A model generated the notes under the pieces. The model did not search any database. It saw only the letters and a list, made by a program, of their open reading frames with translations, and was not told the DNA's origin. A DNA stretch of 64,000 nt. Origin: a virus. Its lineage: Duplodnaviria; Caudoviricetes. Numbering within the stretch: position 1 is the first letter of the stretch; every line of letters starts with the position of its first letter. The position numbers were made by a program, and so were the translations under genes. Positions 51,219-52,988 of the stretch are shown one piece after another. The DNA is taken from positions 26,015 through 90,014 of IMG/VR virus record IMGVR_UViG_3300001525_000522. One strand, 5' to 3'.

Positions 51219-51817
51219 AAGTAGACATATTTAATACTACAAACAAATATTCCATAATATACGCAGATCCTCCTTGGAAATATGGAGGTTCTGGAAGTGC
51301 TAAAGGATGGCCTGCAGATTTTTATTATCCTACCATGACAGATAAGGAAATAGTAGAACTTCTAAAAGAGCCATTAAATAAAATAACTGAAAAAGATTGT
51401 CTATTATTTATGTGGGCTACAGGACCTCATATAAAGGACCAAATAGCTGTAGGAGAAGCCCTGGGATTTAATTATATAACAGTGGGCTTTGTATGGCATA
51501 AAAGAAGGGCTAATACAGGAAATTATACTATGTCTGGCTGTGAATTTTGCTTGATTTTTAAGAAAAAGGGAGGCAAGATTCCTTCAGACCATGTAAGAAA
51601 TCCAGGAGTTCCACAATTTTTTGAACAGAGGTCTTCTAACCACTCAGAAAAACCTTTACAGATTGCTGAAAAAATAAAGATAATGTTTCCTAAATCTAAA
51701 AAATTAGAGCTATTTGCAAGAAGCTCTAAGGAAGGATATGACCATTGGGGTAATACCAACGGTGATAAAGTATTTAATGGACAGTATAATTATACAATGG
51801 AGGTATATGATGCATAA
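51215..51817 (+). CDS. MT-A70 family DNA adenine methyltransferase
   Basis: YSIIYADPPWKY, LFMWAT, HSEKP, LELFAR. Confidence 0.9.
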   Translation: MKVDIFNTTNKYSIIYADPPWKYGGSGSAKGWPADFYYPTMTDKEIVELLKEPLNKITEKDCLLFMWATGPHIKDQIAVGEALGFNYITVGFVWHKRRANTGNYTMSGCEFCLIFKKKGGKIPSDHVRNPGVPQFFEQRSSNHSEKPLQIAEKIKIMFPKSKKLELFARSSKEGYDHWGNTNGDKVFNGQYNYTMEVYDA

Positions 51818-52988
51818 TAAAAATATTTTTAATTTAGTTATAGAAGGCCCAGATGGAGTAGGTAAAACTACGCTTATTAAAGGTCTTTTTAAACATTATA
51901 ATTATAGATACATGTGTTATCATAGAGGAGAGATTTCAAATTATCTTTTTGCAAAGAAATACAACAGAACTTATTATGTAACACAGAAGAATCTTCCATT
52001 TTTATATATAGTCTTAATTGCTTCTGAAGAAGATTTAAAGAAGAGGATACTGGAGAGGTCTAAGATAGAGGGTTGGGTTCAAGATGATTTAGTAGAAGAA
52101 CTATCTAAGATAAATGATGTTAAGGGTTTTAAAGAAGCAGCCGAAACATTTTCTAAGGAGTATGATATAAAGGTATTTGATACTACTGGAAAAACTTCTG
52201 ATGAAACTCTTAAAGAAGTTTGTGAATACTTAGATTCTAGGTATATCTTAGAAGAAAAAGATTCTATAGAGGACTATAGTCAATGGAGTTTAATGTATAA
52301 AGCTGGTTGTGATTTCTTAAATAGGAAATATGAGGTAATTAAAAATCAACCTTATATTGATAATGTTCCAGTTATAACAGAAACTACAATCCATAATGGT
52401 GCATACGAAACTTTTAAAGATAAATCATTTCCGGTAAACTTAATTTTTACTTTAGGTTATGGTAGTACAAATGTTAAAAAATCTAAATTAGTAGATTTCC
52501 AATATATAATAAATAGTAAAATACTTAATAGACCTGAGGTATATGATTATTATAAAGCTATTTCAGATGCAGGATTATCATGCATAACTGCTGACAATGA
52601 TTTAATTCCACATTATAATAACTTTATAAGATGTCAGAGGGTATTTGGAATTGAGTATCTTAATGTAATTTCTAAAGCAAGGGCAACTATATATACTGCT
52701 AGAGAAGTAGAACATATGAAAATTCAAACAGGCAGATTATATGAAGGCATTATAGCTAATAATGTAGTTTTCTTTGATAAAGATTCTGATAAGAATTTCG
52801 ATCAATTGCATAATATTTATAAAGAAGAGGCTGAAAGGTTTATAGAACTGTTAGTGGTTACTCCAGATAATATAATAGAAAAGTATAATAGAATATTCAA
52901 TGATGCTGATTTGGTAGAAGAAATTTTAGATAAGCAGCATAAATATATGAATGGTTTGATTAAGAAGGTTTCGAATGGAAAAATTTGA
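51810..52988 (+). CDS. dNMP kinase-like domain fused to T4 beta-glucosyltransferase-like domain
   Basis: IEGPDGVGKTT P-loop; C-terminal TGRLYE...VFFDKDSD...EILDKQH resembles BGT TLRVWE...MLIDEEFD...EMLSIQH; start after GGAGG. Confidence 0.75.
   Translation: MHNKNIFNLVIEGPDGVGKTTLIKGLFKHYNYRYMCYHRGEISNYLFAKKYNRTYYVTQKNLPFLYIVLIASEEDLKKRILERSKIEGWVQDDLVEELSKINDVKGFKEAAETFSKEYDIKVFDTTGKTSDETLKEVCEYLDSRYILEEKDSIEDYSQWSLMYKAGCDFLNRKYEVIKNQPYIDNVPVITETTIHNGAYETFKDKSFPVNLIFTLGYGSTNVKKSKLVDFQYIINSKILNRPEVYDYYKAISDAGLSCITADNDLIPHYNNFIRCQRVFGIEYLNVISKARATIYTAREVEHMKIQTGRLYEGIIANNVVFFDKDSDKNFDQLHNIYKEEAERFIELLVVTPDNIIEKYNRIFNDADLVEEILDKQHKYMNGLIKKVSNGKI

Follow-up and report, generated by a model that had tools for sequence, protein, structure and literature searches.

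The stretch of DNA analysed here (the window, 64,000 nt) covers positions 26,015 to 90,014 of a 90,014-bp IMG/VR virus record (IMGVR_UViG_3300001525_000522; Caudoviricetes) with a CheckV completeness of 79%. On its plus strand, at 51810–52988, lies a gene for a 392-residue protein (P0001), in which a predicted nucleotide kinase is joined to a domain resembling the β-glucosyltransferase (BGT) of phage T4. A GGAGGT at 51799–51804 precedes the start codon (ATG at 51810) by five bases, and the reading frame closes with a TGA at 52986–52988; with these signals, its homologues and an AlphaFold2 model of the product, this is a real gene. Three parts can be distinguished in the product: a YorR/thymidylate-kinase-like P-loop kinase domain (residues 1–150; 51810–52259, plus strand), a putative shortened remnant of the N-terminal lobe of BGT (residues 151–225; 52260–52484, plus strand), and a BGT-like nucleotide-sugar (donor) lobe with C-terminal helices (residues 226–392; 52485–52985, plus strand). 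The family to which it belongs is a conserved, unannotated variant of the T4-type cytosine-glycosylation machinery, newly recognised here, and the fusion was not described in any paper found by literature search.

The relationship to BGT was established by structural and profile comparisons. The AlphaFold2 model of the whole protein, computed from a 37-sequence alignment, has a predicted local distance difference test score (pLDDT) of 94.2 and a predicted template modelling score (pTM) of 0.84, and its top Foldseek match in the PDB is T4 BGT (1j39, E 5e-8). VIA-align comparison of residues 151–392 of the model also placed BGT first (1c3j_A: Z 16.7, root-mean-square deviation (rmsd) 3.5, 225 residues aligned), with the next glycosyltransferase at Z 13.1. 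Folding of residues 148–392 alone gave a pLDDT of 90.3 and a pTM of 0.90, and BGT was again the top match (Z 16.2, 217 residues aligned). Alignment of the family profile with a 24-member BGT profile yielded an hhalign probability of 95.9% (E 6e-9, 98 columns). The first-pass annotation, made from the DNA sequence without database searches, had proposed a BGT-like C-terminal half on the strength of three BGT strings; all three are truly present in T4 BGT, and the AlphaFold and Foldseek comparison that it suggested as a check returned BGT as the top match, in agreement with the profile comparison. The hhalign stretch puts R269 and E272 of BGT, its UDP-phosphate/ribose residues, opposite R309 and E312 of the fusion protein (52734–52745, plus strand, within the donor lobe), and also includes the C-terminal helix to which the first pass had pointed. 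R309 and E312 are conserved, and are predicted to be the Arg/Glu pair that binds UDP. A second donor-lobe motif, S236/K237/R241/E243 (52515–52538, plus strand), aligns through its first three residues with the Ser/Arg loop of BGT (S189, R191, and R195) to within one residue, at low confidence. Searches of Pfam and PHROGs gave no match for residues 151–392. Taken together, the profiles and models indicate that this region is related to T4 BGT far beyond chance and throughout the family.

The likeness extends beyond the donor lobe. The C-terminal 245 residues match 217–225 of the 333 modelled residues of BGT, which in our judgement exceeds what the donor lobe by itself would account for, and a reduced remnant of the N-terminal lobe therefore appears to be retained. 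Residues 151–225, which consist of one helix, short hairpins and a loop, and hold the invariant D151, Q180, G197, and E200, are predicted from the model to be this remnant, some 75 residues of the acceptor-side lobe. The first ~90–100 residues of the N-terminal Rossmann lobe of BGT, including the BGT-family invariants N70, G73, and G74, have no counterpart. The earlier suggestion that the kinase replaces the N-terminal domain of BGT thus needs to be modified: most of the lobe is gone, but the remnant persists. Either D151 or E200 may be the catalytic base. An equivalence of D151 with D100 of BGT was seen only in a greedy hhalign alignment, and it is not claimed because that alignment has zero confidence and the VIA-align ranges against BGT start at BGT residue 6–11. 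A comparison of isoelectric point and net charge as a proxy for DNA binding was non-discriminating (median isoelectric point of 5.9 in the fusion family and 6.3 in the BGT family). Donor-lobe homology and a C-terminal helix with a conserved Gln are shared with T4 BGT (PF09198; 1c3j, 1j39), as is a gp42-type hydroxymethylase gene as neighbour, found both in T4 and in the fusion loci. Unlike T4 BGT, the fusion protein has a P-loop kinase of 150 residues before the lobe remnant.

The N-terminal half carries a P-loop (EGPDGVGKTT; Walker A, G13–T20), a Y37-H-R39-G-E motif and the lid arginines R79 and R83. Matches of its sequence to thymidylate-kinase and AAA models are weak; those to the Pfam model Thymidylate_kin (PF02223) and to TIGR00041 span the first 23 positions and fall below the curated cut-offs of both (15.5 bits against 27, and 21.6 bits against 83, respectively). 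By fold, its closest VIA-align matches were YorR of the SPbeta prophage (2axp: Z 14.1, rmsd 2.8, 134 residues aligned) and dTMP kinases such as that of S. aureus (4dwj: Z 12.6). By sequence, the family profile matches the PDB kinases 4cvn, 9wd2, and 2axp, and the motif DR-x-x-SN-x-YA is held in common with YorR. Residues 1–150 are thus predicted, from sequence and model, to be a YorR/thymidylate-kinase-like P-loop kinase with intact catalytic motifs, and the dTMP-kinase-type assignment of the first pass stands on both its P-loop and its structural matches. The fold, the EGPD-x-GK Walker A and the lid Arg are shared with YorR (PDB 2axp/3kb2) and the bacterial thymidylate kinases; the scores below all curated family cut-offs and the fusion to a transferase set the domain apart from them. 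An hhalign comparison relates the domain to Konradin_074, a ‘nucleotide kinase’ (probability 96.6%, E 5.6e-10, 115 columns). Konradin is a DLP3-like Acinetobacter phage, and from its same cluster position we take Konradin_074 to be the counterpart of DLP3 gp78. The relation to RL38J1_214 is weaker (hhalign E 8e-4), and the match to M6 gp54, one of the 5-hydroxymethyluracil DNA kinases or 5-HMUDKs (hhalign probability 91.9%), carries meaningful confidence only over the Walker A/P-loop stretch. The gp1-type kinase of RL38J1 gave no hhalign match to the domain, and the dNMP kinase chains 1dek and 1del were not among the listed structural matches. The domain therefore resembles T4 gp1 dNMP kinase in predicted role only, the phosphorylation of the modified dCMP made by the hydroxymethylase; the two belong to different fold families, and their likeness is one of function.

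Both halves are conserved in a family of relatives. A word-indexed search returned 54 full-length relatives of 383–412 aa (39–75% identity), and more came from an exhaustive HMMER search over 1.84 billion representatives; the two-part build of kinase and transferase is common to about 67 near-full-length relatives. In the kinase, K19 is kept in 66/67 of these, R39 in 65/67 and R83 in 64/67, and in the donor site R309 and E312 are each kept in 66/67, and S236, K237, and R241 in 65–66/67. By tblastn, the fusion protein had no match at E 1e-5 among 50,697 phage records; at E 10 there were only weak matches (E 1–10), including BGT genes (residues 288–380) and ‘thymidylate kinase’ genes of Acinetobacter. 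Four short hits were considered as split forms and set aside: P0070 reads as a copy of P0007 with a frameshift, P0062 and P0066 both start in mid-domain, and P0068, which has an unrelated N-terminus, looks like an assembly chimera. None of the four, as judged from sequence, is good evidence for a free-standing transferase.

Three relatives appear to have lost one activity. In P0069 and P0075 the P-loop and R39 are lost, together with S43 and N44 (R39, S43, and N44 are residues that we take to belong to the nucleotide site), and the transferase motifs are all kept. P0073 shows the reverse pattern, an intact kinase with R309M and E312L in the transferase. All three are single sequences, each on a very short contig. 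Directly downstream of the P0069 gene (locus L012, 1961–2659, plus strand) is a 233-aa open reading frame (ORF) containing a DDD motif; it resembles glycosyltransferases of the GT-A type, and its product may add a second sugar. The kinase clade is also found in other combinations. P0086 (298 aa) has a YorR-like kinase with an intact P-loop, fused to a C-terminal part that resembles a thymidylate-synthase/hydroxymethylase fragment (MRSSN...D-type motif), and is, on this sequence evidence, a predicted kinase-hydroxymethylase fusion. A viral cluster of ~303-aa proteins in the ESM Atlas, carrying dUTPase/DCD Pfam families, aligns to residues 7–205 of the query, which suggests kinase-dUTPase fusions in the same pathway.

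Gene context was compared over 14 related loci. The fusion gene abuts a gp42-like gene in 12 of them. The remaining two are the window and L010, whose fusion protein is 75% identical, and here the gp42-like gene lies ~13 kb upstream within the same module. In the window this gene (38612–39358, plus strand) encodes a thymidylate-synthase homologue resembling the dCMP hydroxymethylase gp42 of T4 (33% identity, E 3e-33; PDB 1b49, E 1.7e-28). A dCMP deaminase gene (in the window at 40271–40792, plus strand; phrog_174, E 5.5e-50) is usually close to the fusion gene in the related loci, and a dUTPase-fold gene (54139–54648, plus strand; PF00692, E 1.3e-10) is present in nearly all of them; some of its homologues also match the dCTP deaminase model PF22769 (DCD), and the enzyme possibly clears dCTP as well. 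The gene for a UDP-galactopyranose mutase (Glf; 52975–54120, plus strand; PF03275, E 8e-64) begins within the fusion gene, overlapping its 3′ end by 14 nt, and its product passes the NCBIfam equivalog cut-off (TIGR00031, 317 bits against 303.75). Glf directly follows the fusion gene in the window, L010, L014, L015, L016, and L018, and lies ~3 kb from it in L021; it is absent from L005–L009 and L019, about half of the related loci. On the fusion-protein tree, the Glf-bearing loci fall in the crown and the deepest branches are without Glf, a distribution that needs at least two gains or losses.

The gp42-like protein, the only thymidylate-synthase homologue in the record, suggests which base is modified. 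It keeps the catalytic Cys and has Asp at the positions of both ThyA-N177 and ThyA-D169. Asp at the ThyA-N177 position selects cytosine. At the ThyA-169 position, 5-hydroxy-dCMP synthases carry Asn (PMC13326640), and Asn was found there in the control sequences Konradin_076 and RL38J1_216. All aligned thymidylate-synthase homologues from five related loci have Asp, and the L012 homologue reads the same. By the published criterion, the predicted product is therefore 5-hydroxymethyl-dCMP (5hm-dCMP), as in T4, and not 5-hydroxy-dCMP.

From the observed folds, motifs, family-wide conservation and gene linkage we infer the substrates and the order of the steps. The fusion protein is, with good probability, a bifunctional kinase and UDP-sugar transferase working on hydroxymethylcytosine (hmC). 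The gp42-like enzyme would make 5hm-dCMP, and the N-terminal YorR/thymidylate-kinase-like domain would use ATP to phosphorylate the modified deoxycytidylate, the role of gp1 in T4. Incorporation of the modified base into DNA would then fall to host nucleoside diphosphate (NDP) kinase and the phage polymerase. The BGT-derived domain would bind a UDP-sugar through S236/K237/R241 and R309/E312, and transfer the sugar to the 5-CH2OH group, with D151 or E200 of the reduced N-terminal lobe as the likely base. In this lineage the donor is probably UDP-galactofuranose, supplied by the overlapping Glf, and, given that overlap, probably not the UDP-glucose of T4 BGT. The proposal of UDP-galactofuranose in the first-pass annotation is plausible for this lineage only, since about half of the related loci have no Glf; in those, a host UDP-hexose presumably serves as donor. 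The combination of galactofuranose and hmC was not found in the papers searched.

Whether the sugar is transferred to DNA or to the free nucleotide is the point on which the readings divide. There is a slight preference, at less than even confidence, for two independent sites, with the sugar added to DNA after replication. Every BGT-type enzyme characterised to date works on DNA, as does AGT (titles of PDB entries; PMC13216743). The kinase domain may simply be the 5hm-dCMP kinase of the phage, because no other small Walker-A kinase and no second match to thymidylate kinases were found in the 90-kb record (79% complete). Fusion need not mean consecutive steps, since the kinase clade is also joined to the thymidylate-synthase-like domain of P0086 and the dUTPase-family cluster matches the kinase fold as well. 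The relatives with one lost activity (P0069, P0075, and P0073) weakly suggest, from their sequences, that coupling of the two activities is not obligatory.

Several considerations weigh against the preferred reading. The Pfam model of BGT, PF09198, has no match to the fusion protein at E ≤ 1, although BGT homologues do carry it. In complexes of BGT with DNA, the N-terminal lobe supplies much of the DNA contact; with about 90 residues of that lobe absent here, DNA binding by the fusion protein therefore cannot be assumed. The transferase part was not found free-standing among the relatives in either the word-indexed or the HMMER search, and a kinase-like domain is always attached to it. The variants with one dead half may be decaying genes, which makes them weak evidence. 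Finally, as the record is 79% complete, its missing part could hold a further transferase or a kinase of the gp1 type; no GT1-family domain is present in the 90-kb record.

A serious but less favoured alternative, put forward in the first-pass annotation, is that the sugar is added before replication. Here, the BGT-like domain would glycosylate free 5hm-dCMP coming from the adjacent hydroxymethylase and the fused kinase would phosphorylate the product, perhaps selectively; the polymerase would receive only the sugar-bearing analogue of dCTP, which would leave no stage at which the DNA lacks protection. In its strict form, in which the kinase selectively phosphorylates the glycoside and the polymerase directly builds fully glycosylated DNA, this scheme is somewhat doubtful. 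The architecture of the protein is consistent with it: a nucleotide-binding kinase domain stands in place of most of the acceptor-facing lobe of BGT, kinase and transferase are always fused, and their gene and that of the hydroxymethylase overlap or lie side by side. In a lower-quality ESM Atlas model, BGT clusters superpose from residue 27–31 on. Nevertheless, the scheme requires both host NDP kinase and the phage polymerase to tolerate a bulky nucleotide, and we know of no phage precedent for the incorporation of a glycosylated dNTP. The kinase-dead relatives that keep their transferase motifs, and the one relative with the reverse pattern, also argue against it.

Further support for nucleotide-level transfer comes from phages that make a related base. 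RB69, DLP3, and RL38J1 all make glycosylated 5-hydroxycytosine, with arabinosyl or galactosyl groups on the base (PMC13326640, NAR 2026). Table 1 of that study gives, for each phage, a thymidylate kinase (TMK)/YorR-like ‘nucleotide kinase’, a presumed first transferase and the synthase under consecutive locus tags (RB69 gp45-gp46:47-gp48, DLP3 gp78-79-80, and RL38J1 gp214-215-216; PMC13326640), and the adjacency of the three genes was confirmed here in Konradin and RL38J1. The kinase domain of the fusion protein is related to Konradin_074, and in Konradin and RL38J1 a kinase adjoins the first transferase and the thymidylate-synthase homologue. RB69, DLP3, and RL38J1 each have, besides the cluster kinase, a gp1-type dNMP kinase, which in RB69 phosphorylates 5-hydroxy-dCMP, and RL38J1 carries Glf as well (PMC13326640). 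Single transferases showed no activity on DNA containing 5-hydroxycytosine, and the authors were unable to decide between the mononucleotide and DNA as acceptor of the first sugar (PMC13326640). The analogy is one of context, however: the first transferases of Konradin and RL38J1 showed no similarity to the fusion family when the family was compared by hhalign with the single sequences.

The triads and the fusion thus have in common the link of a TMK/YorR-like kinase to a base-proximal transferase and an enzyme making a modified dCMP, as well as the same question of a nucleotide or DNA acceptor. They differ in that the triads are separate genes in the order synthase, transferase, kinase, whereas here one polypeptide has the order kinase, transferase, and in that their synthases have Asn at ThyA-169 (5-hydroxy-dCMP), whereas this phage has Asp (5-hydroxymethyl-dCMP). 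Since the kinase is related to Konradin_074 and the first transferases show no detectable sequence similarity, the link of kinase and base-proximal transferase appears to recur with different transferases and different modified bases, and to have become a fusion here. In RL38J1 (L027, 24792–29227), the genes for the synthase and the first transferase have both the TMK-like kinase gp214 and the separate gp1-type kinase gp219 within 4 kb.

Two other readings depart further from the preferred one of a 5hm-dCMP kinase joined to a transferase acting on DNA. It is improbable that the N-terminal domain is a nucleobase DNA kinase of the 5-HMUDK type, which would phosphorylate the 5-CH2OH of hmC so that the transferase-like domain could then add a sugar or sugar-phosphate. 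The 5-HMUDKs (e.g., M6 gp54) are P-loop kinases of phage hypermodification clusters and have also been found fused to other, downstream hypermodification enzymes (PMC8989533), and M6 gp54 matches the domain with the hhalign probability given above. That match is confident only over Walker A, however, and the additional (D/H)RG-x-SN-x-Y motif is shared instead with YorR and Konradin_074. Moreover, the 5-HMUDKs act on hydroxymethyluracil in DNA and pair with amino-acid:DNA transferases rather than with Leloir glycosyltransferases; the putative UDP-binding Arg/Glu pair is of the kind seen in ordinary Leloir transferases, whose acceptor must offer a free hydroxyl, and there is no aGPT-Pplase-type partner among the genes annotated in the window. 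A role outside DNA modification is very improbable; on this reading, the fusion protein would act with Glf on a glycan of the cell surface or virion, and the kinase would meet some other demand for nucleotides. Glf is typical of surface-polysaccharide pathways, and many phage and prophage Glf matches are not tied to DNA modification genes. However, the fusion gene sits in a replication and nucleotide-metabolism module and adjoins a homologue of dCMP hydroxymethylase in most loci, the best structural match of its product is an enzyme that glucosylates DNA, which scores 3.6 Z units more than the glycosyltransferase ranked next, and half of the relatives are without Glf.

With sugars on its cytosines, the DNA of a phage is shielded from restriction enzymes and from CRISPR nucleases. 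To our knowledge, the sugar is added after replication in all proven cases. If transfer took place at the nucleotide level, it would be the first pre-replicative sugar hypermodification that we know of, would produce in this lineage galactofuranosyl-5-hydroxymethylcytosine, a base that we have not seen described, and would explain the second kinase of RB69, DLP3, and RL38J1. With a nucleotide kinase and a base-proximal transferase in one polypeptide, a single recombinant protein would allow the acceptor question to be tested directly, and the Glf-linked subgroup points to galactofuranose on hmC. The family is invisible to current annotation: the transferase half has no Pfam match and a UniProt relative carries the name ‘Deoxyguanosine kinase’, and phages that glycosylate hmC are therefore missed in metagenomes.

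The genes around the fusion form a replication and nucleotide-metabolism module, with helicase, ligase, SbcCD, UvsX, DnaB, primase and a split family-A polymerase, in addition to the dCMP deaminase, the thymidylate-synthase homologue and the dUTPase-fold enzyme. Immediately upstream of the fusion gene is an MT-A70 DNA methyltransferase gene (51215–51817, plus strand; PF05063, E 1.4e-15), the 3′ end of which overlaps the fusion gene start by 8 nt. It is not found at this position in L010, and is a mere neighbour that is not conserved with the fusion gene. An HD-type phosphohydrolase homologue at 43763–44473, which has a PHROG match, no Pfam match and 73% identity to its counterpart in L010, may act in the base-replacement pathway by hydrolysing dNTPs or dNMPs. 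A tRNA cluster (54688–56226) follows right after the dUTPase-fold gene; ARAGORN identified Ser-TGA, Thr-TGT, Pro-TGG, and Gly-TCC in it, and Rfam a fifth tRNA-like match at 55111–55195, with no Rfam match at E 0.01 in the 585-nt gap at 55367–55951. Two ORFs (60902–64000) make up the split family-A DNA polymerase, one of 489 aa and one of 406+ aa that runs off the window, and the 126-aa ORF between them has no PHROG or Pfam match. The module also holds two distinct Holliday-junction-resolvase-like genes, at 40792–41247 and 50859–51218 (phrog_843 and phrog_2002).

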